Made by a program: the position numbers and the translations under genes
The notes under the pieces: generated by a model
What the model was told of the DNA's origin: nothing
What the model saw: only the letters and a program-made list of their open reading frames with translations
Databases searched by the model: none
In this document: positions 4,470-59,930 of the stretch, piece after piece
How the letters are laid out: the number at the start of each line of letters is the position of its first letter
Numbering within the stretch: position 1 is the first letter of the stretch
DNA from: a bacterium
GTDB taxonomy: Bacteria; RBG-13-66-14
NCBI GenBank assembly: GCA_035528375.1
Contig: DATKYS010000051.1
Span: 4,503 to 68,502 of the forward strand
Length of the DNA stretch: 64,000 nucleotides
Reading direction: 5' to 3'

Positions 4470-4742
4470 TTCACCCGCGGGCGACCGTGGACGGTCGCCC
4501 CTACGGGGGGCGCTGGATATTGACGTAGGGGCGGGTGTCCACACCCGCCCGTTTTTATCGACAAACCGCGATGATGTAGGGGCCGACCGACGGCGCGCCG
4601 TTCAGGTCGGCCCGCGGGCGACCGTGGACGGTCGCCCCTACGGTGAACTGCACGGTTCTAAATGTAGGGCGGGGACTTCAGTCCCCGCCGCTTTACCCCC
4701 CACCCTGACCCCCCCCAGAGGGGGGAGGGGATAGGGGAAACC
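4470..4742. repeat. REP-like palindromic element cluster (GTAGGGGCGACCGTCCACGGTCGCCCCTAC, GTAGGGGCGGGTGTCCACACCCGCCC, GTAGGGGCCGACC..GGTCGGCCC, GTAGGGCGGGGA..TCCCCGCC, CCCC..GGGGAGGGG units)
   Basis: Several distinct imperfect palindromes bounded by GTAG...CTAC are packed between the paralog-3 stop and the hutH stop. Confidence 0.8.
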
Positions 4743-4743
4743 G

Positions 4744-6264
4744 TCAGTCCAGCGGGCCGATGACCCCCTCGGCGGCCGCCAGTATCGCCCCCGAGCGCAC
4801 CAACTCGGCCATCTCGTTATTGTCGGCGTAGAGCGGCCGGTCCTCGTCCAGGTGCGCCACGTGCTCCCGGACCAGCCCGTAAACGGCTTTAGTGGCCGGG
4901 GCGAACTCGGTGTCGCGGAAATCGCGCGCCTGGCAGGCGGCCATGATTTCGATTCCCAGCACGCCGGGCACGAGGTCCATTATCTGGCGCGTCTTCAGGG
5001 CGGTGGTCCAGCCCATCGAGACGAAGTCCTCCTGGTCCGCCGCGGCGGGGATGCTGCCCACGGCCGCCGGCGTCGAGAGCACCCGACACTCGCAGATCAT
5101 GGCCCCGGCGGTGTACTGGGCCAGCATCAACCCGGAGAACATCCCGCCGCCGTGGGTCAGGAACCCGGGCAGCCCCGCCGACAGCGCGGGGTTCATCAGG
5201 CGGTTGATGCGCCGCTCGGCGAGGACCGCCGCCGTCACCACGCCCATCGAGGCGTACTCCAGGGCCAGGGCCATGGGCGTGCCCTGGAAGTTGGCCCCGG
5301 CGACGACCTCGTCGTCCTCGGGGAAGAAGACCGGGTTGTCGCCGACGCCGTTGAGCTCGGTGAGGAATACCTCGCGGGCGTGGGCCAGGGCGGTGCGGGC
5401 CGGACCGGCGGACTGGGGCGTCGAACGCAGGGAGTACGCGTCCTGGACCTTTTTGCCCGGACGCATCAAAAGCGGCGACCCTTCGGTCAGCCGCCGGACG
5501 TTTTTCGCCACCGTGATCGAGCCCCCGTGCCCCCGGACGCGGTGCAGCCTTTCGTCGTAGCCCGACATGTTGACGTTGAGGACCTCGAGGGTCATGGCGG
5601 CGGCCACGTCCTGGGTCTTGAGCCAGGTCTCCATCTCCAACAACAGAAGCGAACCCAGGCCGTTGATGAAGTTGGAGCCGTTGATGGAGGCCAGGCCGTC
5701 GCGGGCCTCGTAGGCGATGACCGGCACACCGGCCCGGCGCATCGCCTCGGCCCCGGGCAGCCGCTCGCCCCCGTAGAACGCCTCCCCCTCGCCCATCGCC
5801 ACCAGCGCCATCTGACCCATGGGCGACAGGTCACCCGAGGCCCCCACGGACCCCCGGGTGCAGACCACCGGGGTCACCCCGGCGTTGAGCATGGCAGCCA
5901 TGGTCTCCGGCACCTCGCGCCGGCAGCCGGAATTGCCGTGGACCAGCACGTTTATCCGGCCGGTCATCGCCGCCCGCACCCACGGCTCGGGCATGGGCTC
6001 CCCGATTCCCGCCGCGTGCGAGTAGATCAGATACCGCTGGAAATCACGGGTCTGCTCCGGCGTGAGCACCGTCTCGGAGAACTCGCCGATGCCCGTGGTC
6101 ACCCCGTACATGACCTCGCGGTTTTTTATCTTGACCTCGCACATGGCCCGGCAGCGGTCCACGCGCTCCAGGGCCTCGGGGGGAATCTCCACCCGCTCGC
6201 GGCCCACCGCGACGGCCTTCAGCCGCTCGAGGGTGAGGTTCTCGCCGCTGAGGATGACGGGCAT
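4744..6264 (-). CDS. hutH: Histidine ammonia-lyase (MIO-dependent aromatic amino-acid lyase family)
   Basis: MPVILSGENLTLERL... with the MIO-forming motif GSVGASGDLSPMG. GGAGAG RBS is 4 nt upstream of the ATG at 6264. The 800-aa ORF in the track is an upstream in-frame read-through of this gene. Confidence 0.9.
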   Translation of the reverse strand: MPVILSGENLTLERLKAVAVGRERVEIPPEALERVDRCRAMCEVKIKNREVMYGVTTGIGEFSETVLTPEQTRDFQRYLIYSHAAGIGEPMPEPWVRAAMTGRINVLVHGNSGCRREVPETMAAMLNAGVTPVVCTRGSVGASGDLSPMGQMALVAMGEGEAFYGGERLPGAEAMRRAGVPVIAYEARDGLASINGSNFINGLGSLLLLEMETWLKTQDVAAAMTLEVLNVNMSGYDERLHRVRGHGGSITVAKNVRRLTEGSPLLMRPGKKVQDAYSLRSTPQSAGPARTALAHAREVFLTELNGVGDNPVFFPEDDEVVAGANFQGTPMALALEYASMGVVTAAVLAERRINRLMNPALSAGLPGFLTHGGGMFSGLMLAQYTAGAMICECRVLSTPAAVGSIPAAADQEDFVSMGWTTALKTRQIMDLVPGVLGIEIMAACQARDFRDTEFAPATKAVYGLVREHVAHLDEDRPLYADNNEMAELVRSGAILAAAEGVIGPLD

Positions 6265-6343
6265 CGGCTCTCCTTGTGCGTCGGTTACCGGGGGATGATA
6301 CACCGAACCGGGCGTCCGCTCAAGCCCGAACGACCGCCCGCGA

Positions 6344-6374
6344 TGTGAAAAACGGGGCGGCCTGCACCGCCCCG
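6344..6374 (-). terminator. Rho-independent terminator downstream of the flavodiiron gene
   Basis: Plus-strand gaaaaaCGGGGCGGcctgcaCCGCCCCG. On the minus strand this is a GC stem followed by TTTTTC. Confidence 0.55.
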
Positions 6375-6389
6375 TGACGCGGATTTTTC

Positions 6390-7568
6390 CTATTTCAACC
6401 CGGCTTCCCCGTGCTTTTCCGCCACGGTATCGGCCAGGCGGTCCAGGGCCTCGAAATCGGCCTTCCCGGCCAGCCCCTTGGCCAGCACCGGTTCGAGCAC
6501 CTCGACCTTCAGGTTGGGGATGAGGGAAGCCAGGGTCTCCACCGTCTTGCCGCCCCAGCCGTAGGAGCCGACTATGGAGAGGAACCGCGCCTTCGGCCGC
6601 AGCGCGTTGGCCAGAAGAGTCGCGTAGGCCGCCAGCGGGTGGGGACCGGCGAGGACCGTCGGCGTGCCGACGATTATCGTCGCGGCGTCCACCAGGGACA
6701 TCGCCAGCGCCCCGATGTCCACCGAGGCCAGATCGAAGCGCTCCACCCGCACCCCGCGCTCCGCCAGGCCCGCCGTGAGGTGATTGACCATCTCCAGGGT
6801 GCTCCCGTGCATCGAGACGAAGGGCAGCACCGCGATGTTCTTCGGCTCGCCGTTCACCCACCCGTCGTAGGCCTTGACGATGACCTCCGGCCGGGAGTGA
6901 ATCGGGCCGTGGCTCGGCGCGATGAGCTTGAATTCGTAGGGCTCCAGCTTCTTCAGATTCTTCGCGATGATACCGGCGAAGGGCATCATAATCTCGGCGT
7001 AGTACCGCTTGGCCGGACCGGCCACCACCCGCTCCCCGTCGGCGTAGAGCTCGCTCGTCGCCAGGTGCGAGCCGAAGAAATCGCAACTGAAGAGGATTTT
7101 GTCCTCCTCGAGGTAGGTCACGAAGGTCTCCGGCCAGTGGACCCACGGCGTGTAGATGAACTTGAGCGTCTTGCCGCCCAGGTCCAGCGTCTCCCCGTCG
7201 GCCACCACCTTGAACCGCTCCTCCGGGACCCGCAGGAGGTCCATGAGCATCCCCTTGGCCCTCTCGGAGGTGACGAGCTTCGCGTCGGGGAACATCGCCA
7301 AAACGTCGGGGATGGAGCCGGAGTGGTCCTGCTCGGCGTGGTGGGCGACGAGGTAGTCCAGGCGCTTTACGCCCTCGAGCTGTTCGAGAAGGATGCCCCT
7401 CATCGGCGGGTCAACCGTGTCCAGGAGGACGGTCTTGTCGCGCCCGCGGACGAGGTAGGCGTTGTAACTTGTGCCGTCGGGCAGGGGGATGAGCTGGTCG
7501 AAGAGCCGGCGGTCCCAGTCCACGGCGCCGAGCCAGTGCACGTTTTCGGTAATCTTGCGCGGTTTCAT
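6390..7568 (-). CDS. Flavodiiron protein (metallo-beta-lactamase-like diiron domain + flavodoxin domain; O2/NO reductase)
   Basis: MKPRKITENVHWLGAVDWDRRLFDQ..., H-x-H-x-D-H motif YLVAHHAEQDHSGS, and a C-terminal flavodoxin-like domain. AAGGGAGG RBS before the ATG at 7568. Confidence 0.85.
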   Translation of the reverse strand: MKPRKITENVHWLGAVDWDRRLFDQLIPLPDGTSYNAYLVRGRDKTVLLDTVDPPMRGILLEQLEGVKRLDYLVAHHAEQDHSGSIPDVLAMFPDAKLVTSERAKGMLMDLLRVPEERFKVVADGETLDLGGKTLKFIYTPWVHWPETFVTYLEEDKILFSCDFFGSHLATSELYADGERVVAGPAKRYYAEIMMPFAGIIAKNLKKLEPYEFKLIAPSHGPIHSRPEVIVKAYDGWVNGEPKNIAVLPFVSMHGSTLEMVNHLTAGLAERGVRVERFDLASVDIGALAMSLVDAATIIVGTPTVLAGPHPLAAYATLLANALRPKARFLSIVGSYGWGGKTVETLASLIPNLKVEVLEPVLAKGLAGKADFEALDRLADTVAEKHGEAGLK

Positions 7569-7619: not shown

Positions 7620-8110
7620 AGATATTCCGACTGCTCAAGTCGGCTATTTGCCGACCGAATCCCCCGACGGTTTTTATACGCGGTAAGGTTGAACAGCCGT
7701 AGGGCGGGGACTCCTTTCCCCGCCGTTTTTTTTAAGGAAGCCCTCACCCCCATCCCCTCTCCCGGAGGGAGAGGGGGGCCGCTTCGACCCTCACCCCAAG
7801 CTGCGATGATGTAGGGGCGGGTCTTTAGACCCGCCCGCGGGCCGACATGAACGGCGCGCCGTCGGTCGGCCCCTACGAGGTTGACGCGCGATTCACACCT
7901 TAGCCGTAGGGGCGGGTGTCCACACCCGCCCGTTCGTTGCATCGGAGTGACTCAAAAGTAGGGCGGGGATTCCCATCCCCGCCGCGTTTTTTATAAGGTG
8001 GCCCTCACCCCCATCCCCTCTCCCGGAGGGAGAGGGGGACCGCTACACCCCCCTCCCCGGCCCGTAGGCAAGCCACTCCCCAAAGGGGAGAGGGGGAATA
8101 AGGCAGACCT
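7620..8110. repeat. Large REP-like palindromic element cluster (at least 8 units of 4 families, including two CCCTCACCCCCATCCCCTCTCCCGGAGGGAGAGGGG units)
   Basis: Contains gtagggcggggactcctttccccgcc, gtaggggcgggtctttagacccgccc, gtaggggcgggtgtccacacccgccc, gtagggcggggattcccatccccgcc and cccctctcccggagggagaggggg twice. Confidence 0.8.
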
Positions 8111-8171
8111 CCCACGGGGGGAGGGAAGCTTGGTATAATCACCCGGCAATCGAGCACCTGCGGAAACCCCC

Positions 8172-9395
8172 ATGACCGGACTCGCCGACCTCTTGAAAAA
8201 CGTCGTCTCCGACTGGCGGCGCAACCTCATGCGCAGCATCCTCACCGCGCTGGGCATCGTCATCGCCGTGATGACGGTGGTGACGATTCTGGCGCTGGTC
8301 GGCGGCCTGGACAGCTTCGTGCGCGAGGAGATAGGCGCTCTGGGGGCCAACAGCTTCATCATCAGCCGCACGGGCGTCATCCAGAGCGAGGAGGACTGGC
8401 TCGAGGCCGCCAAGCGTCCGCGAATCACCGACGCCGAGTACTCCTCCCTCGTCCGCAGGCTCAAGGGACGGTATCTCTACGCCTCGCCGCAGGTGCGGAG
8501 CTGGCTCAACATCGAGGCCGGGGGGAAGGAGCTGCGCTACATCCGGACCTTTGGGGTGGGCGCCGACATGTACAACATCAACGAGCGTCCGCTCGAGGAG
8601 GGGAGGTACTTCACCGAGGCCGAGGTCGCCCGGCGGAGGCCGGTGACGGTCCTGGGCTACGAGGTGGCCGGTGAGCTCTTCAGCGGCCTCGACCCCCTGG
8701 GCCGCGAGGTGCGCATCGGCGGGAGGCCCTTCACCGTGGTGGGCGTGTACGCGGAGCAGGGCCGGCTCATGGGCCAGTCCACCGACGACTTCGCCGACAT
8801 CCCCTACTCCACCTTCCGCAAGTACTACGGCTTCCGCAGCCCGGTGAGCATCTACCTCCGCGCGCGCTCCCAGGAGGAGGTCTCCGAGCTATCGTACGAG
8901 GCCCAGCAGGCGTTCCGCACCGTCCGCCACCTGGCGCCCGGGGAGCCGGACAACTTCGGCGTCGTCTCCGAGAAGCTCCTGGTGTCCGTCTTCGAGCAGA
9001 TGACCGGCGTCATCTTCGGCGTGATGATTGTAGTGGGCGGCATCAGCCTCCTGGTGGGCGGCATCGGCATCATGAACGTGATGCTGGTGGCCGTGAGCGA
9101 AAGGACGCGGGAGATAGGCATCCGCAAGGCGGTGGGGGCGCGGCGCTCGGACATCCTGCGCCAGTTCCTCACCGAGGCGCTCCTGGTGACGGTGGTGGGC
9201 GGGGTCATCGGGGTGGGGCTGGGGGCGCTGGTGGCCAACCTCATCGGGGGCGCGGTGGAGCTGCCCGTCGAGGTTTCCGCCGGCTCCGTGGCGCTGGCCA
9301 TGATCTTCTGCGGGGTGGTGGGGGTGAGCTTCGGCATATTCCCGGCGCTCAAGGCCGCCCGCCTGGACCCCATCGTCGCGCTGCAGAAGACGTAG
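8172..9395 (+). CDS. ABC transporter permease, MacB/FtsX family (periplasmic MacB-PCD + 4 TM FtsX domain)
   Basis: N-terminal TM helix, a roughly 200-aa periplasmic domain, then an FtsX-like 3-TM bundle with ...SERTREIGIRKAVGARRSDILRQFLTEA.... No ATPase or MFP gene is adjacent. Confidence 0.8.
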   Translation: MTGLADLLKNVVSDWRRNLMRSILTALGIVIAVMTVVTILALVGGLDSFVREEIGALGANSFIISRTGVIQSEEDWLEAAKRPRITDAEYSSLVRRLKGRYLYASPQVRSWLNIEAGGKELRYIRTFGVGADMYNINERPLEEGRYFTEAEVARRRPVTVLGYEVAGELFSGLDPLGREVRIGGRPFTVVGVYAEQGRLMGQSTDDFADIPYSTFRKYYGFRSPVSIYLRARSQEEVSELSYEAQQAFRTVRHLAPGEPDNFGVVSEKLLVSVFEQMTGVIFGVMIVVGGISLLVGGIGIMNVMLVAVSERTREIGIRKAVGARRSDILRQFLTEALLVTVVGGVIGVGLGALVANLIGGAVELPVEVSAGSVALAMIFCGVVGVSFGIFPALKAARLDPIVALQKT

Positions 9396-9399
9396 GGAC

Positions 9400-9700
9400 G
9401 GTTTTTCCCGAATGTAGGGCGGGGGGTTTTTTCCCCGCCTTTTTATAAGGTAGCCCTCACCCTATCCCTCTCCCACAGGGAGAGGGGACCGCGCCGACCC
9501 TCACCCGCGGATTGCGACGACGTAGGGGCGGGTATCCACACCCGCCCGTTTTTGCCCCTCACCCTAGCCCTCTCCCCAGAGGGGAGAGGGGACACGCGGC
9601 AACCCTAATCCCGACCCTCTCCTAAATGTAGGCGGGGATTTTAACCGAGCGAAGCGAGCTATGCCCCCGGCAAATCCCCGCCGTTTTTTAACGACCATCC
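9400..9700. repeat. REP-like palindromic element cluster
   Basis: Contains gtagggcggggggttttttccccgcc, ccctctcccacagggagagggg, gtaggggcgggtatccacacccgccc, ccctctccccagaggggagagggg and gtaggcggggattttaacc. Confidence 0.75.
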
Positions 9701-9710: not shown

Positions 9711-10212
9711 TTACCGGCCCACGGTCACCAGCCCCCGCATCGCCGCCAGCTTCCCCTCCCCGATCCCCTCCACCCGCAGCAAGTCGTCAACGGAGGAATA
9801 GGGCCTCCCCGCGATGATTCTGCGCGACAGCACCTCGCCGATGCCCGGCAGCCTTTCGAGCTCCCAGGCCGGGGCGCGGTTCAAATCGAACGGCCCCGTC
9901 GGTTCCGCCCGGGACCCGAGCCAGCGGCGGTCGAACCAGACCAGCGCCGGCAGGCCCGGCGTCACCCGGGGCAGCGAGGCGGCGAGAGCGGGTTCGCCCC
10001 CGGCCCGGCGGTAGATGTAGGCCAGATCGGGTGTGGTCCCCCGGAGGAAGGGGTAGGCGCCGGGACGGGCCACGGCGTCACCGAAGACGAAGGCGTAGTC
10101 CACCGCGGGTTTTTCACCCGGGGGCGGGGGATGGGGCTGGTCGAGGAGGATGAAGAGGGCCGCCGCGAGGGCGAGCGCGACCACGGCGGCGGTTTCGGCG
10201 CGGCCGATCAAC
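9711..10212 (-). CDS. ComEA-like helix-hairpin-helix DNA-binding protein (N-terminal TM anchor); start codon uncertain (possible TTG overlapping the TPR stop)
   Basis: C-terminal ...FDLNRAPAWELERLPGIGEVLSRRIIAGRPYSSVDDLLRVEGIGEGKLAAMRGLV is a tandem HhH (ComEA) motif. TM helix AAVVALALAAALFILL. The ATG-initiated 251-aa ORF in the track has an implausible N-terminal extension that overlaps the TPR gene. Confidence 0.55.
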
Positions 10213-12157: not shown

Positions 12158-12526
12158 TTATTCCAAATATTTCGCTATCTCCGCCAACACAGCATCAATA
12201 TTCGCCAAGACATCATTACACCAGAACCGCAAAACAGTAATTCCCTGCCCCCTCAAAAACTCATCCCTCCGCCGATCATACTCCGCCTGTTCCGGTTGCG
12301 CATGTTGCCCGCCATCCACTTCCACCGCCAGGTCAGCCTCCGAGCAGAAGAAATCCAAGATGTAATTGCCGGTTACGTGCTGACGGCGGAACTTGGCCTT
12401 TATCAGTCGGCGGTCCCGCAAGAGACGCCAGAGCTTTCTCTCGGCTAGGGTCAGGTTCCGCCGCAGGGAGCGGGAGTGCTCGACCAGCTTGGGGGGCAGT
12501 TCGCCCTGTGGATGATGCAGAGACAT
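12158..12526 (-). CDS. DUF559 (Vsr-like very-short-patch endonuclease fold) protein
   Basis: ...LTLAERKLWRLLRDRRLIKAKFRRQHVTGNYILDFFCSEADLAVEVDGGQHAQ...DRRRDEFLRGQGITVLRFWCNDV. The distal part is AT-richer than its surroundings. The N-terminal extension in the track overlaps a REP element, so the start is set at MSLHHPQ. Confidence 0.65.
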   Translation of the reverse strand: MSLHHPQGELPPKLVEHSRSLRRNLTLAERKLWRLLRDRRLIKAKFRRQHVTGNYILDFFCSEADLAVEVDGGQHAQPEQAEYDRRRDEFLRGQGITVLRFWCNDVLANIDAVLAEIAKYLE

Positions 12527-12529
12527 TTT

Positions 12530-12680
12530 TATAAGGAAGCCCTCACCCCGGCCCTCTCCCACAGGGAGAGGGAGACGTAGGGCGGCCCCGTAGGACGAGT
12601 CCTCTGCGGGCCGCTTCGTTCACCCCCCTCCCTGGCCCGTAGGCACGCCTCCCCCCAGTGGGGGGAGGGGATTGCGGCGG
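12530..12680. repeat. REP-like palindromic elements
   Basis: ccctctcccacagggagaggg and ccccccagtggggggagggg units flank gtagggcggcccc. Confidence 0.7.
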
Positions 12681-14773: not shown

Positions 14774-14779
14774 ATGCTC

Positions 14780-14868
14780 CCTCCCCCCCTGGGGGGAGGC
14801 GCGCCTTGGGCTTGGGTGTGGGGCGGGCGGGTGTGGACACCCGCCCCTACAAATTACTCCAAGGGGCG
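14780..14868. repeat. REP-like elements (GTAGGGGCGGGTGTCCACACCCGCCC family)
   Basis: gggcgggcgggtgtggacacccgcccctac lies between the two paralogs. Confidence 0.7.
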
Positions 14869-14870
14869 CC

Positions 14871-16097
14871 ATGCCGTTGGAAATCCGCGAAGTCGTAGGT
14901 AAAAAAGAACTGAAGGCGTTCATCCGCCTGCCGGTAGGCATCTACCGCGGCGTGCCCCAGTGGGTGCCCCCCATCTGGTCCGACGAGCGCACCTTCCACG
15001 ACCCGGCGAAGTACCCGGCCTACCGGACCGCCGACGCGGTCCGCTACCTGGCCTGGCGCTCCGGCGCTCCGGTGGGGCGCGTCATGGGCATCGTCCAGAG
15101 GAGGATGAACGAGCGCTGGCGCATCAAAAACGCGCGGTTCACCTTTCTGGAATGCCCCGACGAGCGGGAAATCTGCGCGGCCCTCCTGGGGGCGGTCGAG
15201 GGCTGGGCCCGCGAACGCGGAATGGAGACCGTCACCGGGCCCCACGGCTTCTCCGATCAGGACTGCCAGGGGATGCTCATCCACGGCTTCGAGCACCGCG
15301 CGACCATAGAGACCTTCTACAACCTCCCCTACCTGCCGAAACTCGTGGAGGCGTGCGGCTACTCCAAGGATTTCGATTACCGGGTGTTCCGGGTCCCCAT
15401 CCCCGCCGCGCCGCCGCCGGTGTACGTGAAGGTCAAGGAGCGCCTGGAGCGCCGGGGCTTCGTCCTGGTCGAGTTCACCAAGAGGAAGGCCCTCCTCCCC
15501 CACATCCCCGACTTCGTCCGCATCTACAACGACACCTTCGACGAGATTTACGGTTTCGTGTCCCTGACCGCCGAGGAGGGGAAGAAGCTCATCAGCGACT
15601 ACCTGCCCGTCCTCGACCCCCGGTTCGTGAAGTTCATCTACAAGCTGCCGCCCGGGGAGCGCGGTCGGCCCGTCGTGCCCGGCTCCGACGAGGTCGTCGC
15701 CTTCTTCATCGGCATCCCCGACATGACCGAGGGCATCCAGGCGGCCGGTGGGAGGCTCTTCCCCTTCGGTTTTTTGAAAATCATGGCCGCCCAGAAGAGG
15801 ACGGAGCAGCTCGACCTGATGATCGCCGGGGTGACGAAGGCGTACCGGAACCGTGGTCTGGCCGCCATGTTCGGCGTGGGGCTCATCCGCGACGCCAACG
15901 CCGCCGGCTTCACCTACGCCGACGCGCACCAGGAGTTGGAGTTCAACACCAAGGTCCAGGCGGAGATGCTGCGCTTCGGGGCGCGGGAGTACAAGAGGAT
16001 GCGTGTGTACAAGAAGGAGGTCGCGCCGGGGGGGCTGGAGCGCTACGACAACGCCTTCGAGCACCACCACGGCTTCGGCGTGGATGACCCGCTGTGA
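14871..16097 (+). CDS. Paralog 2 of the GNAT/FemAB-like approx. 400-aa family
   Basis: MPLEIREVVGKKELKAFIRLPVGIYRGVPQWVPPIW... It is colinear with 13544..14773 throughout. Confidence 0.5.
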   Translation: MPLEIREVVGKKELKAFIRLPVGIYRGVPQWVPPIWSDERTFHDPAKYPAYRTADAVRYLAWRSGAPVGRVMGIVQRRMNERWRIKNARFTFLECPDEREICAALLGAVEGWARERGMETVTGPHGFSDQDCQGMLIHGFEHRATIETFYNLPYLPKLVEACGYSKDFDYRVFRVPIPAAPPPVYVKVKERLERRGFVLVEFTKRKALLPHIPDFVRIYNDTFDEIYGFVSLTAEEGKKLISDYLPVLDPRFVKFIYKLPPGERGRPVVPGSDEVVAFFIGIPDMTEGIQAAGGRLFPFGFLKIMAAQKRTEQLDLMIAGVTKAYRNRGLAAMFGVGLIRDANAAGFTYADAHQELEFNTKVQAEMLRFGAREYKRMRVYKKEVAPGGLERYDNAFEHHHGFGVDDPL

Positions 16098-16099: not shown

Positions 16100-16300
16100 T
16101 GCACGTCACCCTCGTAGGGGCCGACCTTCAGGTCGGCCCGTGTTTTCCCTCTCCCTTTTAGGGAGAGGGTTGGGGTGAGGGGCGGGCGGGTGTGGACACC
16201 CGCCCCTACGTCATCGCAATCCGCGCGGCGCGGGCCGGGGTGAGGGGCGAGGTAAAAAAGCAGCGGGGATTAAAGTCCCCGCCATGCATTTTAATTGACG
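16100..16300. repeat. REP-like palindromic element cluster
   Basis: gtaggggccgaccttcaggtcggcccg, ctctcccttttagggagagg, gggcgggcgggtgtggacacccgcccctac and gcggggattaaagtccccgcc. Confidence 0.75.
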
Positions 16301-17039: not shown

Positions 17040-17440
17040 TGGGCCCGTGGGGTGACGGAAAAAAAGCGGATGTGGACACCCGCCCCTACGGGTGAGGCGT
17101 AATTTATTCGTCACCCTCGTAGGGGCCGACCGACGGCGCGCCGTTTAGGTCGGCCCGCGGGTGACCGTGGACGGTCGCCCCTACGTCACTCAATCCACGA
17201 GTCACGGGTCGCTGCATATCCCTTCTCCCTTTCAGGGAGAGGCTCGCCTACGGGTTAGGGTGAGGGTCAAGGTTGGGAACGTATAAAACGCGGCGGCCCG
17301 CAGGGGATGTATCCCACGGGGCCGCCCTACATGTATGCAGAAAGCGGCGAATAAACGGGTGGGGTACGGAGCCCCCGCCATACGTTAAAACGCACAGAGG
17401 TGTATAACCGAACGGCCTAGCGCGAACTTCCACCCCCCTA
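17040..17440. repeat. REP-like palindromic element cluster
   Basis: gtggacacccgcccctac, gtaggggccgaccgacggcgcgccgtttaggtcggcccgcggg, gaccgtggacggtcgcccctac, ctctccctttcagggagagg and cggcccgcaggggatgtatcccacggggccgccctac. Confidence 0.75.
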
Positions 17441-25499: not shown

Positions 25500-25860
25500 G
25501 GGCAACAAAAAAGGTGTCGCGCAGACGCCGCCCGGTTCCCGGTCCGGGTTGCGCTGACGTAGGGCAGGGATTTTAATCCCCACCGCGGTTTCTACGTTCC
25601 CAAACTTCACCCTCACCCTAACCCGTGCCTCGTATTCGCGATGATGTAGGGGCGGGTCTTTAGACCAGCCCGCGGGCCGACCTGAACGGCGCGCCGTCGG
25701 TCGGCCCCTACGTTTGGTAAATGAGGAAACGGGCGACCGTGGACGGTCGCCCCTACGGGACGGATTCGCGGTTGGACGTAGGGGCGGGTGTCCACACCCG
25801 CCCGCTCCCCCCTCCCCGGTCCGTAAGCGCGCTTCCCCCAGAGGGGGGAGGGAGTGGACA
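25500..25860. repeat. REP-like palindromic element cluster
   Basis: gtagggcagggattttaatccccacc, gtaggggcgggtctttagaccagcccgcgggccgacctgaacggcgcgccgtcggtcggcccctac, ggcgaccgtggacggtcgcccctac, gtaggggcgggtgtccacacccgccc and cccccagaggggggaggg. Confidence 0.8.
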
Positions 25861-36955: not shown

Positions 36956-37347
36956 GATAGAACTCCATCGTGAGGATGTGTCACTGCCTCGAAAAGGTCT
37001 TCAGCTTCGTTTTTACTTTTCGTTGGCTCATACCTCGAATCAGGTTTCCATTTTTTTACTGTAGCCAAATATATCGCTGTCTGGTTATTCGCTGGTCCCT
37101 CTCCCAAAGCTGCTTTATCGAATAATTTATCGAAATTATGGGTCCAACTTGCATCCACACGTTCTTTCTCTGGGAATTCGTGTCGCCGGGTTCGTTTAGC
37201 AATTACAGCCTTCAGGGCACATTCAACGGCATACCCTATCAAGTAATAGGCACCGACGTATCTTCTAGCTTCTAACAAAATCTGAGCATCTCTTACGCGA
37301 TCAAGTGCCATTTGTTTTAAATCACTACTCATTAGTAGTGTACCCAT
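36934..37347 (-). CDS. HEPN-domain protein (putative RNase toxin/abortive-infection component)
   Basis: ...ARRYVGAYYLIGYAVECALKAVIAKR... is the HEPN helix. The Rx4-6H motif is present as R-VDASWT-H-NF. It is AT-rich and overlaps the nqrB stop. Confidence 0.6.
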   Translation of the reverse strand: MGTLLMSSDLKQMALDRVRDAQILLEARRYVGAYYLIGYAVECALKAVIAKRTRRHEFPEKERVDASWTHNFDKLFDKAALGEGPANNQTAIYLATVKKWKPDSRYEPTKSKNEAEDLFEAVTHPHDGVLSWLRTFW

Positions 37348-44052: not shown

Positions 44053-44133
44053 GTTTTTTTCTTGAAATTCTTGTGAATGTGGTATAATATTTACCACAGA
44101 CACTTGAACAGACAACATAGTAATGGAGGAGCT

Positions 44134-44499
44134 ATGTTCGGTGACTTCGTAAAGGCGCAAAGATTGGCGTTGGATTTGAGCCTACGCCAATTTTGCCAGA
44201 AGCTGGAACTGGATCCCAGCAACTGGAGCAAGGTCGAGCGCGGGATTCTTCCGCCGCCCAAGGATGAGGTATTTCTGGAGCGGTTGGCAAATTTACTGCA
44301 AATCGAAATTGGCTCACCGAAGTGGCAAGAGCTCTCCGACCTGGCGCATGTTGACCGGGGAGAGATCCCAGGGTATGTGATGCAGGATGAGGAGCTAGTT
44401 AAATTGCTGCCCGTCTTTTTCAGGACCATTGACAGCATCAAACCCACTAGACAAGAGATAATCCAACTGCTGGAGAGCATTAAGGAGGCGCATAAATGA
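44134..44499 (+). CDS. XRE-family helix-turn-helix transcriptional regulator (AT-rich island)
   Basis: MFGDFVKAQRLALDLSLRQFCQKLELDPSNWSKVERG is a Cro/C1-type HTH. Perfect RBS taatGGAGGAgctATG. Confidence 0.7.
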   Translation: MFGDFVKAQRLALDLSLRQFCQKLELDPSNWSKVERGILPPPKDEVFLERLANLLQIEIGSPKWQELSDLAHVDRGEIPGYVMQDEELVKLLPVFFRTIDSIKPTRQEIIQLLESIKEAHK

Positions 44500-45110
44500 G
44501 CTTTCAATTCATGTGTCCCTTCATCAGAAAGGAAGAGCTTTGGGGGAGGGCGGAAGATATTCGGACCACTTACCTAGTGGACTATAAATTACCTATTGAT
44601 AGCGAGCTGATATGCGAAAAGGCAGGCTTGGATGTAGTACCAACAGCTATGCCGAATGTATTCGATTGTTGCATCATTGTAAGTAGAAATGAGTTATGTG
44701 TTAGTCTGAATAGATATTTAGATGACCGTAACGAAAATCGTCTTCGTTTCACTTTTGCGCACGAATTGGGGCACTTCATCTTACACCGGAGCATTCTTGA
44801 AGAGTTAAGTCTGCAAACGATAGATGATTATCTGGAATTCTTGGATGCAGAGCAAGATGAAGCGTATTTACGTTTTGAGTTTCAAGCCAATGAATTTGCA
44901 GGGCGTCTGTTAGTGCCTAGAGACCTGCTTCAAGAGAGATTCGAAAAGCTAATAAGCTCGATTCCGTCTGACCAACGGGCATTTGTTGCAGATAATCTTG
45001 ACTACCTAAAAACCGTGGCGAGCGAAAAGATTTGTGTCGAGTTTGGTGTTTCCCCAAGAGTCATAGCAATAAGGCTCGAACGCGAAGGGTTGTGGCCTCC
45101 CAGGTTGTAG
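44496..45110 (+). CDS. ImmA/IrrE-family zinc metallopeptidase (DUF955, HEXXH)
   Basis: FAHELGHFILH motif. It overlaps the XRE gene by ATGA. Confidence 0.8.
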   Translation: MSFQFMCPFIRKEELWGRAEDIRTTYLVDYKLPIDSELICEKAGLDVVPTAMPNVFDCCIIVSRNELCVSLNRYLDDRNENRLRFTFAHELGHFILHRSILEELSLQTIDDYLEFLDAEQDEAYLRFEFQANEFAGRLLVPRDLLQERFEKLISSIPSDQRAFVADNLDYLKTVASEKICVEFGVSPRVIAIRLEREGLWPPRL

Positions 45111-45164: not shown

Positions 45165-45300
45165 CGGGCGGACCTAAAGGTCCGCCCCTACGTCATCGCA
45201 ATTCATACGGCGCGGGCCGGGGTGAGGGTCGGGGTCTTGAACGTGATATGGGCGGGGTACTCAAGCCCCCGCCCTACGCGCTTCATCTACCCCCACCGGG
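45165..45300. repeat. REP-like palindromic elements
   Basis: gcggacctaaaggtccgcccctac and cgggccggggtgagggtcggggtc. Confidence 0.65.
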
Positions 45301-48895: not shown

Positions 48896-49411
48896 ATGGA
48901 CGTCCTCATCCACATCTGCTGCGGCATCTGCATCCTCGAGCCGCTCCGGGACCTGCGCGGCGAGGGGCACGACGTGCTCGGGGTGTGGGTCAACCCGAAC
49001 ATCGAGCCGGCCGCCGAGCACGACCGCCGCCTGGACGCCCTGGGGACCGTCGTCCGGGTCGAGGGGCTGCCGTTGGTGCGCCTGGACGCGCCGGAGTTTT
49101 CGCCTCCCGCGGCGGAGCCCTCCGACGAGCGCTGCGGCTATTGCTACCGCCTGCGCCTCCTCCCCACGGCCCGCCTCGCCGCCGAGTCCGGCGCCGCCTT
49201 CACCACCACACTTTTATTCTCCCGCCATCAGCGCCACGAATTGATAAAAAGCGTCGCGGAACAGGTGGCCGCCGAGACCGGGGCGGAGTTCCTCTACCGT
49301 GACTGGCGGCCGCTCTTCGCCCGGGGCCAGAGCCGGGCCCGGCGGCTCGGCATCTACCGCCAGCGCTACTGCGGCTGCCTGCCCAGCCTCGACGCCCGGC
49401 TGAAGGAGTAG
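48896..49411 (+). CDS. queH: Epoxyqueuosine reductase QueH (DUF208)
   Basis: LIHICCGICIL...VWVNPNIEP...ERCGYCYRLRL...YRQRYCGCL is the QueH cysteine pattern. Confidence 0.8.
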   Translation: MDVLIHICCGICILEPLRDLRGEGHDVLGVWVNPNIEPAAEHDRRLDALGTVVRVEGLPLVRLDAPEFSPPAAEPSDERCGYCYRLRLLPTARLAAESGAAFTTTLLFSRHQRHELIKSVAEQVAAETGAEFLYRDWRPLFARGQSRARRLGIYRQRYCGCLPSLDARLKE

Positions 49412-49414
49412 GGC

Positions 49415-49700
49415 GGGATTTTACCCCCACCGCTACCTCTACGAAATCCCCCGTATGCGCGTTGCGATGACGTAGGGGCCGACCTTTAGGTCGGCCCGTT
49501 CTTCAAAGGCAACCCTCACCCTTTATCCCGCTCCCACGGGGAGAGGGGGGCCGCTTCACCCCTCACCCCGGCTATATCCCAAACGTAGGGCGGGGATTTT
49601 AATCCCCGCCGCTTTACCCCCCACCCCAACCCGTAAGCGCGCTTCCCCCCAGAGGGGGGAGGGGACCGCGGGACGACTTCACTTCTTCGTCCAACCGTCA
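49415..49700. repeat. REP-like palindromic element cluster
   Basis: gtaggggccgacctttaggtcggcccg, ctcccacggggagagggggg, gtagggcggggattttaatccccgcc and ccccccagaggggggagggg. Confidence 0.75.
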
Positions 49701-49750: not shown

Positions 49751-49936
49751 TCAAGGTTGTGGAATCCCCAGGTCGGCGCATATCTTCTTCGCCAATGTAT
49801 CGCTGATCCCGGTGTGCCTGGGGACCGTGGACATCTTTCCCGTCGTCGCATTCACGAATACGCTGTGCTTACCACCCTCGCGTTTCAGAAGGCACCCGGA
49901 CCCGATCAAATGCTGGATCAGATCCCGGCGTTTCAT
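49751..49936 (-). CDS. hicA: HicA-family mRNA interferase toxin
   Basis: MKRRDLIQHLIGSGCLLKREGGKHSVFVNATTGKMSTVPRH... is the HicA/YcfA fold signature. Confidence 0.8.
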   Translation of the reverse strand: MKRRDLIQHLIGSGCLLKREGGKHSVFVNATTGKMSTVPRHTGISDTLAKKICADLGIPQP

Positions 49937-50202
49937 GCCGTCAGCTGCAAGGGTTCCCGGATAACCTCAGTATTCTCCAATCGTTTTTCCGCTTCCTCCC
50001 GGTAGCACTCCAGCAACAGCCGGACCGCGTCGAGAAGATTCTCCCGGGCCTCTTCGAGGGTCGCGCCCTGGGTGTTCGCGCCGGGAAGCTCTTCCACGAA
50101 GGCGATATAGCCTTCCGGCACTTTCTGAAAAACAGCGGTCAGCTGCACTTTCATCTCCGCTCCTCCATCCGCCGGACGAAACCTGGGTACAGTATAGCTC
50201 AT
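49933..50202 (-). CDS. hicB: HicB-family antitoxin (UPF0150)
   Basis: ...KVPEGYIAFVEELPGANTQGATLEEARENLLDAVRLLLE... It overlaps hicA by 4 nt and lies upstream of it. Confidence 0.7.
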   Translation of the reverse strand: MSYTVPRFRPADGGAEMKVQLTAVFQKVPEGYIAFVEELPGANTQGATLEEARENLLDAVRLLLECYREEAEKRLENTEVIREPLQLTA

Positions 50203-50214
50203 TTTTCAACCAAG

Positions 50215-50320
50215 CGGCTGGTTTTACCCCTCACCCTAGCCCGTAGGCGAGCCTCCCCCCAAAGGGGGGAGGGGACAAGCGACCCTCACCCCAGCCCGTT
50301 CCGACAAACGGCCCCGGTTT
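50215..50320. repeat. REP-like palindromic elements
   Basis: ccctcaccctagcccgtaggcgagcctccccccaaaggggggagggga. Confidence 0.65.
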
Positions 50321-50377: not shown

Positions 50378-51385
50378 GTGAAACTGCCCGATAAAATCGC
50401 CGTCATGGGGGCCGGGAGCTGGGGCACCGCCCTGGCCATCGCCTTCGACTACGCGGGCGTCCCGGTCACCCTCTGGGCCCACACACCCGCCCTGGCCGCC
50501 AAACTCTCCCTGCACCGGGAGAACGTGGACTACCTCCCCGGCGCTCGGCTGCCCGATTCGATAAAAATCACCGATGACATCGCCGAGGCGGCCCGCGGCG
50601 CGGGGACGGTCTTCTCCATGGGGCCGACCCAGTTCGCCCGCGACGTCATCACCCGCTTCAAACCGTACCTCACCAAGGGCGCCATCGTCGTCAACGCCGC
50701 CAAGGGCATCGAGCGCACCAGCCACCAGACGATGACCGAGCTGGCCGAGGAGGTGCTCCCCGACCGGTTCCACAAGCGGCTGAGCGTGCTCTCGGGGCCG
50801 AACTTCGCCGAGGAGGTGGCCCAGGGGCTCCCCGCCGCCGCCGTCATCGCCAGCCGCTCCAAGGCCGCCGCCCGTTGGATCCAGCAGAAGCTATCCTCCG
50901 ACCGCCTCCGCCTCTACACCTCCAACGACCCCATCGGCGCCGACATCGGCGGCTCGATGAAGAACATCTTCGCCATCGCCGCCGGGGCCATAGACGCCCT
51001 GGGGCTGGGGGACAACGCCCGCGCCGCGCTCATCACCCGCGCCCTCGTCGAGATAGCCCGCCTGGGCAAGGCCGTCAGCGCCAAGGGAAAAACCTTCAAG
51101 GGGCTCTCCGGCCTGGGCGACCTCCTCCTCTCCTGCTCCAGCCCCAAGAGCCGCAACTACAACGTGGGCTACCGCCTGGGGCGGGGGGAGAGCCTGCGGG
51201 ACATCCTGGCCGACATGGTCCACGTCGCCGAGGGTGTGCCCACCACCGTTGCCGCCACGGCCCTCGCCGAGCGCCACAAAATCGAGCTCCCCATCACCGC
51301 CGAGGTCTTCCGGATGCTATACGGGGAGAAGAGCCCCGCCGACTGCGTCCGCGACCTGATGACCCGGGAGCTCAAGCCCGAGTAG
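50378..51385 (+). CDS. gpsA: NAD(P)H-dependent glycerol-3-phosphate dehydrogenase
   Basis: MKLPDKIAVMGAGSWGTALA Rossmann motif, with GpsA colinearity throughout. Confidence 0.9.
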   Translation: MKLPDKIAVMGAGSWGTALAIAFDYAGVPVTLWAHTPALAAKLSLHRENVDYLPGARLPDSIKITDDIAEAARGAGTVFSMGPTQFARDVITRFKPYLTKGAIVVNAAKGIERTSHQTMTELAEEVLPDRFHKRLSVLSGPNFAEEVAQGLPAAAVIASRSKAAARWIQQKLSSDRLRLYTSNDPIGADIGGSMKNIFAIAAGAIDALGLGDNARAALITRALVEIARLGKAVSAKGKTFKGLSGLGDLLLSCSSPKSRNYNVGYRLGRGESLRDILADMVHVAEGVPTTVAATALAERHKIELPITAEVFRMLYGEKSPADCVRDLMTRELKPE

Positions 51386-51394: not shown

Positions 51395-51760
51395 TTCCCT
51401 AAATGTAGGGCGGGGACTTCTGTCCCCGCCGCCGGCCCCGACCCTCACCCCGGCCCGTCGGCGAGCCGCTCCCTAGAAGGGAGAGGGGGCCGTCGCACCC
51501 TTTATCCGCGCCTGCGATAACGTAGGGCGGCCCCTCTGCGGGCCGCCGCGAATTGCAATGACGTAGGGGCCGACCGACGGCGCGCCGTTCAGGTCGGCCC
51601 GTCTCGACATGGTGCCCGTAGGGCGGGGAACCGAGAGAAGCGAGCTATGCGAAGCAAATCCTTTCCCCGCCGTTTTCACGTTCCCGGCCCCGACCCTCAC
51701 CCTATCCCTCTCCCTAAAAGGGAGAGGGGGTCGTCCGCGGGCGTCTTTTTGTTCCCCCCG
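51395..51760. repeat. REP-like palindromic element cluster
   Basis: gtagggcggggacttctgtccccgcc, ccctagaagggagaggggg, gtagggcggcccctctgcgggccgcc, gtaggggccgaccgacggcgcgccgttcaggtcggcccg and ccctctccctaaaagggagaggggg. Confidence 0.8.
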
Positions 51761-55649: not shown

Positions 55650-55745
55650 GACTCCTCCTGACGAAAAGAGGTGGCGTTTTTTTTATAGATGAGTGCGTAG
55701 GCCGTCCCCTCCCCCCTTGGGGGGAGGGTTAGGGAGGGGGGTCCC

Positions 55746-56036: not shown

Positions 56037-56387
56037 TTAACTTTCATCTATCTCAATCAAGTTAACTGCTTCCTGTTTTAGTCTGGAGCTTATTATTTGA
56101 TTCATTAAATTGTAATCGTTTTTATCCATTTTTTTAACTTTAAGTCTATTTTTTACCTCACATAAAGGTAACGACATCACCAATAAGCCAAATGCTTCAT
56201 CAAGAAAAGAAACTGAAGCGATAATTAACCCTTCAAAGTCCAAAATAATAACTTCACCCTTAGGCCATCGGCCTATAATAGCTTCTCTAACTGCTTTCCC
56301 TGCATCACGCGTCGCAACCCACTGACCAGCAGTTATTTTCTTAATTGAAAAGATCATCCGAAATCTCCTCGAAAAGTGTTTGTTCAT
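56037..56387 (-). CDS. STAS-like (DUF4325-type) small protein, AT-rich island
   Basis: ...GEVIILDFEGLIIASVSFLDEAFGLL... is a STAS/anti-sigma-antagonist-like core. Low GC. Confidence 0.45.
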   Translation of the reverse strand: MNKHFSRRFRMIFSIKKITAGQWVATRDAGKAVREAIIGRWPKGEVIILDFEGLIIASVSFLDEAFGLLVMSLPLCEVKNRLKVKKMDKNDYNLMNQIISSRLKQEAVNLIEIDES

Positions 56388-57210
56388 CTGTATAGACTAG
56401 AGGGATAATTATATAAATAGTAACGCCTTTTACATAAGCAGTTAATTTTTTCACGATTCTACGTGTTTTCTTTTTTTGTTTTTCATATGTAACCATACCC
56501 AAACCAGACAAATAACTTACATTTCCATTAACGTTTAATATACCTACCTTAATATGTTGCAGTCCCATTCCCCCAACAGCCTGTTTTCTCGTTGTAACTT
56601 GTGTTTCTACTGCTGTTTTTATTGCTTCAATATCATTAGATAAATCTTTTTTTACTGTTAACAATGAATTTAAAAACCCTATACCATAGTCTGAAATTGA
56701 AATATGAATTTGTTTTTTCTTAGAGTAAATTTGACCACATACAACACACCCAAACGGTGATTCACTATGGTCTTTTACATTCGTTGTTAATTCATTCATA
56801 CATAATTGAGTTATAAATAATATATTATCATGCAAATAAGGAACTTGGTCCTTAATTATCTCTAAATATTCTAACACTTTCTGCTCATAGTGTTTACTAA
56901 TAGGAGTAAGTTCGAATGTAGTTCTATTCAACTTCCTTGTTGTAGCTTGACCATAAAATCCACTTGATTTTAAATATTCTCTAGTTCCTTGTGACCTTGG
57001 TTCAATTATATACAATCTTTTAAAATTCCTGAAATATTGTTTTATTGAATGATATAATAGAGATATTGCAAATGGTTTAATACTTAGTACATTACTAAAA
57101 TCCAGAGTTACTTCATCTTTGGTTTCTGATAATTCATTACATCTTTTTATCATTGCATCCACAAAATGAATACTTAAATGTGAATGAAACTTTATTGTTT
57201 TCATAATCAA
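56341..57210 (-). CDS. GHKL-superfamily ATPase (RsbW/SpoIIAB-like histidine-kinase-like ATPase), AT-rich island
   Basis: N-box LCMNELTTNVKDHS, G1 box ISDYGIGF and G2 GGMGL. Low GC. It overlaps the downstream STAS-like gene. Confidence 0.55.
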   Translation of the reverse strand: MIMKTIKFHSHLSIHFVDAMIKRCNELSETKDEVTLDFSNVLSIKPFAISLLYHSIKQYFRNFKRLYIIEPRSQGTREYLKSSGFYGQATTRKLNRTTFELTPISKHYEQKVLEYLEIIKDQVPYLHDNILFITQLCMNELTTNVKDHSESPFGCVVCGQIYSKKKQIHISISDYGIGFLNSLLTVKKDLSNDIEAIKTAVETQVTTRKQAVGGMGLQHIKVGILNVNGNVSYLSGLGMVTYEKQKKKTRRIVKKLTAYVKGVTIYIIIPLVYTDEQTLFEEISDDLFN

Positions 57211-57406: not shown

Positions 57407-57426
57407 CAAGGGGCTTAAGCCCCTTG
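57407..57426. promoter_or_regulatory. Perfect 20-bp palindrome CAAGGGGCTTAAGCCCCTTG
   Basis: It is self-complementary. A near-identical palindrome is CAAGGGGTTTAAACCCCTTG at 63353..63372. Confidence 0.5.
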
Positions 57427-57445
57427 TATTACCGTCCGCAGGGTG

Positions 57446-59191: not shown

Positions 59192-59222
59192 CGAGGTGTC
59201 CCTCCTTGGGGCGGCTCGAGTA

Positions 59223-59606
59223 TCAATCCCTGCTCTCCAGCACGACCACGGCGGCGGCGGAATGGCGGTTGTGGGTCAGGGTGAGATGAATTTTCGTAAT
59301 CCGCAGAGACCGGACCATCTCGGTGGCCCGACCGCTGAAGAGGAGGGAGACCGCGCCCGACGGCTCCCGCACCACCTCGACCATCTTCCAGCGCATGCCC
59401 TGGGCCAGCCCGGCGCCGAGGGCCTTGAAGGCCGCCTCCTTGGCGGCGAAACGCGCGGCGAAGTGCTCCCAGTACCGCGCTTGGGAGCGGCAGTACTTCA
59501 CCTCGGCCGGGGTGAAGACCTCCTCGGTGAATTCGAGGCCCCCCTCGTGGTGACCGCGCCGGAAGCGCTCCACCTCGACCAGGTCTACGCCTATGCCCTT
59601 GATCAT
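59223..59606 (-). CDS. acpS: Holo-[acyl-carrier-protein] synthase (4'-phosphopantetheinyl transferase)
   Basis: MIKGIGVDLVEVERFRR... with ...AAKEAAFKALG.... Confidence 0.8.
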   Translation of the reverse strand: MIKGIGVDLVEVERFRRGHHEGGLEFTEEVFTPAEVKYCRSQARYWEHFAARFAAKEAAFKALGAGLAQGMRWKMVEVVREPSGAVSLLFSGRATEMVRSLRITKIHLTLTHNRHSAAAVVVLESRD

Positions 59607-59699
59607 TATTATCCGGGATTGGAATGTTGCCGGGGAACTATCTTACCGACTGCGCCGCCCCTTGTCCAGTTCCTTCCGCGAGGGGAAGTTGCGTATATG

Positions 59700-59930
59700 G
59701 CAACGTAGGGCGGGGAATCCGTTCCCCGCCGCTTTTATTCCTCACCCGACTTGCGATGGTGTAGGGGCCGACCATTATGTCGGCCCGCCCCACACCCTAG
59801 CCCGTAAGCGCGCTTCCCCCAAGAGGGGGGAGGGGACACACGGGCCGACCTAAACGGCGCGCCGTCTGTCGGCCCCTACGTTTGGCAATCGTGGAAACGG
59901 GCGGCCGCGGCCGTCCCCCCCGAGGCGCCG
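59700..59930. repeat. REP-like palindromic element cluster
   Basis: gtagggcggggaatccgttccccgcc, gtaggggccgaccattatgtcggcccg, cccccaagaggggggagggga and gccgacctaaacggcgcgccgtctgtcggcccctac. Confidence 0.8.

Follow-up and report, generated by a model that had tools for sequence, protein, structure and literature searches.

The 64 kb of DNA analysed here (positions 4,503 to 68,502 of contig DATKYS010000051.1, assembly GCA_035528375.1; hereafter the window, with a G+C content of approximately 65%) carries, in the gaps between its genes, clusters of short palindromes headed by the tetranucleotide GTAG. We put at a little under nine in ten the probability that these clusters are repetitive extragenic palindromes (REPs) of the GTAG-tagged super-family, assembled into mosaics resembling bacterial interspersed mosaic elements (BIMEs) on the chromosome of a Candidatus Coatesbacteria bacterium. 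All 14 intergenic clusters described in an earlier, sequence-only reading are present at their coordinates, each lying between genes; that listing had omitted a hairpin at 55707-55728 and a long-looped REP at 9627-9686.

Every GTAGGG and CCCTAC was listed with its context, and a hairpin-aware scan then yielded approximately 41 GTAG-headed hairpin units, or 0.6 per kb, a count that takes in one GTAGGC-headed unit (9627-9686) and a few degenerate copies, and leaves out five further matches inside genes in which GTAGGG is followed by a weak hairpin and which are attributable to chance. A degenerate 27-nt pattern covering four of the sequence families defined below (A, A', B and C-short) matched 16 times where dinucleotide-preserving shuffles led us to expect 0.00, and a pattern for family D matched nine times against a chance expectation of 0.03. 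On a gene map made from our own rough calls, based on G+C content at third codon positions and backed in places by Pfam, all units are intergenic. They occupy six of eight convergent gaps, seven tandem gaps (six on the minus strand, one on the plus strand) and a single divergent gap out of eight (7620-8171, with five units). Within clusters, the families are mixed, both orientations occur and the spacing between units is irregular, ranging from 1 to 110 nt.

Anatomy and families of the units

The unit is asymmetric, consisting of a free 5' GTAG, a G+C-rich stem of 9 bp, a 4-nt loop, the returning stem and a single 3' G. Individual units had previously been credited with GTAG...CTAC ends; the tag is in fact one-sided, and CTAC marks a unit lying on the opposite strand, or an inverted partner met at its outer end, rather than the second end of one unit. 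Four of the five consensus strings written with both ends have no match at all, and the only fully symmetric GTAGGG...CCCTAC unit, and hence the only match to the fifth, is a 43-nt member of family E at 28866-28908. At least five families can be distinguished by stem sequence (A/A', B, C, D and E), all having the same geometry and GTAGGG head. The 27-nt module is represented by GTAGGGGCGGGTGTCCACACCCGCCCG in family A, GTAGGGGCGGGTCTTTAGACCCGCCCG in A', GTAGGGGCGACCGTCCACGGTCGCCCG in B, GTAGGGGCCGACCTTCAGGTCGGCCCG in C-short and GTAGGGCGGGGA-n6-TCCCCGCCG in D; variants with longer loops (C-long, in which the loop is self-complementary, and D-long) measure 39-57 nt, and family E is a bulged hairpin of 40-43 nt. 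Seven GTAG families had been proposed, and five of these do carry the tag, whereas the tag is missing from CCCTCTCCC-nnn-GGGAGAGGG and from the C-rich variants of this sequence, and these belong to a separate element, described in the final section.

When folded as single-stranded DNA, each 27-nt family adopts the same structure of four free nucleotides, 9 bp and a 4-nt loop, with folding energies between -11.6 and -12.2 kcal/mol (z -4 to -5.5). Alignment of 23 units shows that GTAGGG, though its GTAG is unpaired, and the closing CC-G are invariant, while 95.4% of stem cells are paired and compensatory double changes affect seven of the nine stem pairs. The covariation score of this alignment is 0.678, a value that none of 500 shuffles reached (0.166 in shuffles), and sliding the pairing partners reduces it to 0.13 or less. 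Many units are perfect copies, and others are degenerate, including those at 17062, 28739, 45248 and 49408.

Short repeats clustered in intergenic DNA might also derive from a DDE transposon, as its miniature inverted-repeat elements, or form a CRISPR-like array. We give these explanations next to no credence, since the repeats occur in both orientations with irregular spacing, mixed families and no repeat-spacer periodicity, and are single 27-nt hairpins with a one-sided tag rather than paired terminal inverted repeats. Scans of the window for tRNAs and Rfam families returned no matches, and the only repeat-associated gene found beside the units encodes a REP-associated tyrosine transposase (RAYT), an HUH/Y1 enzyme related to the TnpA of IS200/IS605.

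The published definition of REPs, by contrast, fits the units: they are small palindromes (27 nt, or 39-57 nt in long variants, where the definition has 20-50 nt) with an unpaired GTAG, they are intergenic and present in high copy number, they favour convergent or unidirectional gaps (that is, gene 3' ends), and their stems are kept by compensatory changes, so that their description as REPs in BIME-like mosaics, of the kind that RAYTs act upon, stands. A survey of GTAG-tagged REPs recognised 24 families in eight phyla (Di Nocera et al. 2013, BMC Genomics 14:522; PMC3733652), and the likeness extends to most of the features recorded there: a one-sided, unpaired GTAG before a stem-loop (with stems of 6-13 bp in the survey), stem changes that are complementary between sub-families, the coexistence of several families in a genome, short and long loops of which the long ones are self-complementary, tight dimers with GTAG on the outside, hybrid-family dimers included, clustering, gaps that tend to be unidirectional or convergent, and the occasional use of a second small palindrome as an insertion context. 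Candidatus Coatesbacteria lies outside the surveyed phyla. No relevant match to the exact REP strings or stem sequences was found in the searchable literature, and the titles and abstracts of eight papers mentioning Coatesbacteria give no sign of repeats. This is a new host for a known kind of element and not a new kind of element; the REP/RAYT system is extended to an uncultured candidate phylum, and the understanding of what REPs are is unchanged.

What does distinguish the window is how densely the units are packed locally, at an unusual 0.6 or so per kb, and the residence of five or more families side by side; the whole genome of Escherichia coli K12 contains roughly 600 REPs (PMC8266576), and the local density here is higher. 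The mosaics resemble E. coli BIMEs, which are built of REP types y, z1 and z2, in combining REP types in alternating orientation with recurrent linkers, and also in that the REPs on the two sides of a RAYT gene frequently have different stems, as y and z do. They differ in having no regular tandem arrays of REPs and inverted REPs and no bulged stems (family E apart), in having linkers of unrelated sequence (TGCGATGAY before GTAGGGG units, a T-run and TATAAGG after D units), and in that the clusters also hold a GTAG-less element.

Linkers were noted upstream of several families. TGCGATGAY usually precedes units of the GTAGGGG type, that is families A, A' and C (4570-4576, 7805-7811, 16209-16217, 25640-25646, 45191-45199, 49466-49472 and 51557-51563), and CYAAAY precedes D units, as it does inverted C-long units on their outer side; such recurrent 5' linkers might include a cleavage or target site. 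A loop insert of approximately 30 nt (AACCGAGCGAAGCGAGCTATGC...) is conserved between the two D-long units of the window (9627-9686 and 51618-51674) and recurs in REPs flanking RAYT genes at two related loci (L121, ~9885-9940; L204, ~690-765).

Transposase genes in related genomes

Relatives were sought by scanning GTDB species representatives with the degenerate pattern, which matched at least 120 stretches. The window aligns at 75-96% nucleotide identity to four metagenome-assembled genomes (MAGs): MFAF01 (Candidatus Coatesbacteria bacterium RBG_13_66_14, 95.6%), CAYTCV01 (91-94%), CAZNZF01 (87-89%) and DAOVLG01 (Coatesbacteria CSMAG_1439, 75-79%). The same REP families are present in all four, at 0.5-0.6 per kb in loci that were fetched by their REP match. 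Among the matches listed, families A and B are all but restricted to the Coatesbacteria lineage, while the exact family-C 27-mer GTAGGGGCCGACCTT[CT]AGGTCGGCCCG is found in MAGs classified in six phyla or more (Coatesbacteria, Acidobacteriota/Vicinamibacterales, WOR-3, Stahlbacteria, Zixibacteria and Chloroflexia). Some single matches, in Streptomyces and Firmicutes MAGs, may be due to chance, and horizontal transfer, convergence and MAG contamination may each have contributed to the spread of family C.

The earlier reading had proposed a search elsewhere for a RAYT gene standing between REPs in inverted orientation, and related contigs and a sister MAG of Coatesbacteria do have such genes. In the Coatesbacteria MAG contig (L008), the RAYT gene (4096-4466) is cut by the contig end and has a REP doublet and a family-D REP just upstream; the REP upstream of the gene here, and in L121 and L205, is identical to window unit 7958-7984. 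The gene is complete on three metagenome contigs with these same repeat families (L123, 555-1013; L204, 231-689; L205, 103-561), where it is bracketed by a forward D unit 11-16 nt before the start codon and an inverted D or D-long unit right after the stop, with A-type REPs and copies of the GTAG-less element nearby. A second clade of RAYTs is represented by proteins of 150-170 amino acids with HUH and tyrosine motifs, bracketed by family-C REPs (L055 and L097). The arrangement of REP, RAYT gene and inverted REP, known as a REPtron, is thus present with family D in relatives and with family C in L055 and L097, and is absent from the window. Two RAYTs flanked by the family-C 27-mer are 39% identical to each other.

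Two of the proteins exceed the cutoff of 80 bits for NCBIfam NF047646, 'REP-associated tyrosine transposase' (P0003, 103.7 bits; P0001, 94.6 bits), the full-length homologues P0001, P0003 and P0004 retain the HUH motif and the catalytic tyrosine, and H70, H72 and Y128 are invariant in our RAYT alignment (A1). The best match in the PDB is the E. coli TnpA-REP structure 4ER8 (E 6e-15). Database homologues at 78-96% identity belong to PF01797, and P0002 and more distant homologues are labelled 'REP element-mobilizing transposase RayT' by the Joint Genome Institute; no Coatesbacteria-labelled RAYT occurs among the best 120 of 1,775 database homologues. P0002 (L121 10001-10423; L122 4605-5027), which lies within a 38-kb contig and shares 81% identity with the protein of L008, has the C-terminal sequence ...LVINAAGLGNPALRRH, its C-terminal YxxxNPVR tyrosine motif having been replaced by a family-D REP, and from its sequence looks like a decayed copy.

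A metagenome scan with the RAYT alignment as query added 74 further loci, at which a GTAG hairpin stands upstream of the gene on the plus strand in 58 cases, downstream on the minus strand in 54 and on both sides in 51, the stems of the two often being different. Base composition was compared at these loci and at L124-L201. The Coatesbacteria-type genes have a G+C content of 43-47% in surroundings of 63-70%. At other metagenome RAYT loci, the gene is below its flanks in 48 of 49 cases, by a mean of 7 points, and gene G+C tracks flank G+C (r = 0.93). The deficit of 20-25 points in this lineage suggests that the gene was imported recently or that poor codon usage is selected for. Together with the sharing of one family-C 27-mer, across phyla, by RAYTs that have diverged so far, the low G+C content bears on the question of strict vertical inheritance of REP-RAYT systems.

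Among the closest described systems are the group 3 REPtrons of Stenotrophomonas maltophilia, Pseudomonas and Marinomonas Mb (Corneloup et al. 2021, NAR 49:6982, PMC8266576), in which, as here, short perfect palindromes follow GTAG and the tnpA-REP gene lies between a REP and a second REP in inverted orientation and encodes an HUH protein with a catalytic tyrosine (in our case, in relatives). Bulged REPs characterise group 2 and short perfect REPs group 3 in that classification (PMC8266576). By profile, the Coatesbacteria RAYT matches the E. coli TnpA-REP, a group 2 protein, and its gene differs in lying ~20-25 G+C points below its surroundings.

A mechanism consistent with this arrangement would have the hairpin and its GTAG tag recognised on single-stranded DNA, cut and rejoined by a RAYT, which would be encoded once or a few times elsewhere in this genome by a gene bracketed by two inverted REPs and would disperse units in trans, most of them landing in the intergenic DNA that lies behind genes. 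After insertion, the subset of units with a T-run would probably act as terminators or 3'-end stabilisers, the remainder being neutral or put to other uses by the host, and the GTAG-less element at REP tails would be either a preferred insertion context or a co-travelling partner.

Several observations weigh against this account, or against parts of it. The evidence that RAYTs mobilise the units is one of association. No RAYT or remnant of one was detected in the window by tblastn with an E. coli RayT query, by tblastn with three RAYTs derived from the related loci, or by a profile HMM (hidden Markov model) applied to six-frame translations, and none was seen in a sample of ~240 kb from the three MAGs closest to the window; since a genome typically has a single RAYT copy (PMC5581495), absence from a 64-kb sample says little. 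The Coatesbacteria RAYT itself comes from the most distant of the four MAGs, and cognate RAYTs were found for families D and C but for none of A, B and E. None of the window's four tight doublets is a classical REPIN, which comprises two inverted copies of the same REP, separated by a spacer, that can form one long hairpin. They resemble REPINs (Bertels & Rainey 2011) in being inverted pairs with GTAG heads outward, at gaps of 1-3 nt, and in having the polarity of the REPs that bracket RAYT genes, but their partners belong to different families: C-long (+, 4576-4614) with B (-, 4615-4641) in the doublet 4576-4641, A' (+, 7811-7837) with C-long (-, 7838-7876) in 7811-7876, C-long (+) with B (-) in 17119-17184 and A' (+) with C-long (-) in 25646-25711. 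The doublet that was folded (4576-4641) forms two separate hairpins, and most units are singletons. Finally, comparison of REP strand with GC skew and with majority gene direction revealed no detectable bias beyond a weak trend. In the window and 46 related loci, which are not independent of one another, REP heads of families A, B and C fall on the C-rich strand 42 times against 25 (p 0.05), and those of family D 19 times against 13, which is not significant. The plus-strand excess of family D in the window (8:0, or 9:1 with the degenerate copy at 16261) is probably local, since the wider data gave only that weak trend.

Turnover and gene ends

REP content differs between close relatives. In the orthologous gap after 59606 (window 59607-59934, compared with L016), the flanks are 92% identical and the REP content is wholly different, and the segment 49409-50313, comprising three REPs, a HicB-like gene and GTAG-less elements, represents a filled site that is empty in L107, whose two flanking genes are ~110 bp apart. 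By contrast, an A-type unit at 45165-45191 is kept in place between the window and L107. Some units must therefore be old and others recent. One apparent pair of empty and filled sites (60832-61023, compared with L064) was rejected, the difference in length being a coding indel and not a REP.

These comparisons bear on whether the units are relics, the transposase having been lost from this genome and the REPs having spread by recombination, gene conversion or replication slippage. This would accommodate the failure to find a RAYT in the window or in the DNA sampled from the three closest MAGs, the decay of P0002 through loss of its tyrosine motif to a REP, and the many degenerate units. We nonetheless think it improbable: a small sample tells little where the gene is typically single-copy, many units are perfect copies, intact RAYTs of 76-96% identity are present in four related contigs, and REP content has turned over at a genome-to-genome identity of 92%.

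Roughly half of the gene 3' ends have a REP cluster behind them, and in two cases the unit has become part of the gene. The stop codon of gene 8172-9395 is the TAG of a GTAGGG REP head (9392-9395), as is that of gene 48896-49411 (49408-49411), of which the L107 orthologue has a TGA of its own and no REP at that position; gene 3' ends have thus been remodelled by REP insertion. The best terminator-like sites in the first part of the window (1-20 kb) are likewise REPs with T-runs, at 4529, 7703, 7962, 9526 and 16118. A T-rich tail is found behind only ~12 of the 41 units, approximately eight of which are co-oriented behind a gene, so that any role in termination is limited to a subset and does not extend to most operons; the earlier assertion that REPs replace terminators after most operons was therefore overstated. 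Intrinsic termination is a property of this subset rather than of the unit class as a whole, and units standing before a T-run probably act as terminators or 3'-end stabilisers.

A more radical possibility is that all units are ordinary intrinsic terminators or 3'-end stabilisers, evolved in place for each operon and never mobile. It draws on those same terminator-like sites and on the enrichment at gene 3' ends, with six of eight convergent gaps occupied, but we consider it very unlikely, more so than the relic explanation, because the very same 27-mers turn up at numerous unrelated positions and across four genomes, the head, though unpaired, is always GTAGGG, of which a terminator has no need, T-rich, co-oriented tails are confined to the minority given above, five units lie in a divergent promoter region, content differs entirely at orthologous sites, and the same units bracket RAYT genes. 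GTAG-tagged REPs remain the explanation that we prefer.

There are practical consequences for genome projects. Short-read assemblies of these genomes are broken by REP clusters, most related RAYT contigs being 1-3 kb in length, and mechanically called open reading frames (ORFs) are inflated by them. The particular N-terminal extensions that had been attributed to REPs are another matter, the long ORFs that traverse the clusters being listing artefacts of stop-poor, G+C-rich DNA; one large extension that was checked (4744-7146) runs into the neighbouring gene and not into a REP cluster.

A second element and the composition of the clusters

The GTAG-less modules constitute a second, lineage-specific element apart from the REPs, to which we refer as the CT element and which has the form (T-run)(TATAAGGTRG)CCCTCACCC-n3-5-CCCTCTCCC-nnn-GGGAGAGGG-GRCCGC-n-CCCTCACCC, with a C-richer variant. 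Thirteen perfect hairpins of this type occur in the window, or approximately 20 if imperfect ones chosen by eye are included, and the cluster at 50215-50320 consists of a CT element alone. Across the Coatesbacteria DNA, 18 of 32 CT modules have the tail of a REP within 30 nt upstream in one polarity, compared with one inverted REP in that position, and the family of the adjoining REP varies (D, A, C or E). Where lineages were tabulated, Coatesbacteria loci contain CT modules, WOR-3 loci account for two more, and none was found in the Acidobacteriota, Zixibacteria and Stahlbacteria loci that were counted. As a partner element of REPs, it is new as far as could be told.

Two related readings would give this association, or the transposase, a larger part. 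The clusters may be something other than plain REPs, with a REP of any family joined in fixed polarity to the T-run/TATAAGG linker and CT element as a composite, lineage-specific module, in which the CT element would be either the context into which the RAYT prefers to insert or a component of some new unit that is mobilised as a whole. Alternatively, a single, apparently imported RAYT, with the low G+C content already noted (43-47%, in a genome of 63-70%), may serve all five families, in which case it would recognise shape and the GTAGGG head and not the sequence of the stem. Taken together, we regard these as rather unlikely, if less so than any other alternative that we considered.

The C-rich arm of the CT element is able to fold into a hairpin. 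The G-rich strand has the form G3N3G3N3G3N3G3 (for example GGGAGAGGGATAGGGTGAGGG), a canonical quadruplex motif that overlaps the 9-10-bp hairpin, as seen in the elements at 7741-7800, 8002-8100, 9454-9510, 9556-9620, 12540-12572, 28780-28812, 50226-50300 and others. G-quadruplex motifs number 30 in the window against 21.6 in shuffles (range 13-29), a modest excess, and by our own comparison of their coordinates with the REP/CT map approximately 14 of the 30 fall within these intergenic elements.

The composition of the clusters can be followed along the window; strands are those of the window, and the four doublets stand where they were placed above. Behind gene 3815-4462, a B unit (4478-4504, -) is followed by a terminator-like A unit with a T-run (4525-4551, +), the first doublet and a D unit (4664-4690, +). 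In the divergent gap, a D unit with a run of eight T (7699-7725, +) leads into CT element 7741-7800, and the second doublet is succeeded by an A unit (7906-7932, +) and by D unit 7958-7984 (+), with CT elements 8002-8100 after it. Nineteen nucleotides past gene 8172-9395 lies a D variant (9414-9441, +) with CT element 9454-9510, then an A unit with a T-run (9522-9548, +), CT element 9556-9620 and the D-long unit with the GTAGGC head, which also has a T-run (9627-9686, +). The cluster at 12540-12670 (+) contains, in order, a CT element, an E unit (12577-12617) and a C-rich hairpin (12648-12668); that at 14779-14850 (-) pairs a C-rich hairpin (14780-14799) with an A unit (14824-14850, -). A terminator-like C-short unit (16114-16140, +), 17 nt past gene 14871-16097, is accompanied by a CT hairpin (16147-16169), an A unit (16183-16209, -) and a degenerate D-like hairpin with a GCATGG head and a T-run (16261-16287, -). 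The third doublet lies between an A unit with a degenerate 3' arm (17062-17089, -) and an E unit (17291-17330, -), while the fourth has a D variant before it (25559-25585, +) and a B unit (25730-25756, -) and an A unit (25778-25804, +) after it, the last followed by a C-rich hairpin near 25832-25852.

Further along, a degenerate C-like unit (28739-28766), a T-run and CT element 28780-28812 together span 28739-28812 (+), and the symmetric E unit (28866-28908, strand unassigned) follows. The conserved A-type unit at 45165-45191 (-), a variant designated A'' (GTAGGGGCGGACCTTTAGGTCCGCCCG), is accompanied by a degenerate D-like unit (45248-45277, -). The unit that supplies the stop codon of gene 48896-49411 is also D-like and degenerate (49408-49452, +), and precedes a C-short unit with a CT element behind it (49472-49498, +) and a D unit (49585-49611, +) with a C-rich hairpin at 49644-49660. 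The CT-type element without a GTAG unit occupies 50226-50300 (+; CCCTCACCC...CCTCCCCCC-AAA-GGGGGGAGG...CCCTCACCCC). Past gene 50378-51385, a D unit at a distance of 20 nt (51405-51431, +) is followed by a short variant of family E (51522-51548, +), a C-long unit (51563-51602, +) and a D-long unit (51618-51674, +) with CT hairpin 51706-51728. The hairpin at 55707-55728 is isolated, C-rich/G-rich and of CT type (strand unassigned), and the final cluster consists of a D unit (59705-59731, +), a variant of C-short (59761-59787, +) and a C-long unit (59840-59879, -).

Small accessory modules are found beside or between the clusters, encoding a HEPN protein and its partner (36539-37347), an XRE helix-turn-helix protein with an ImmA/IrrE M78 peptidase (44077-45110), a HicB-like antitoxin (49933-50205), a DUF4325 (STAS-like) protein together with a weak HATPase_c protein in an island of 42% G+C (56037-57210), a DUF559 endonuclease-like protein (12158-12562) and an HSDR_N_2 protein (816-1589). 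The modules at 816-1589, 36539-37347, 44077-45110 and 56037-57210 are clearly low in G+C, and the island at 56.0-57.4 kb has a shorter version in L016. Three paralogous tandem genes at 2485-4462, each with a CBM96 carbohydrate-binding module, lie in a stretch of lower G+C content (57-58%).

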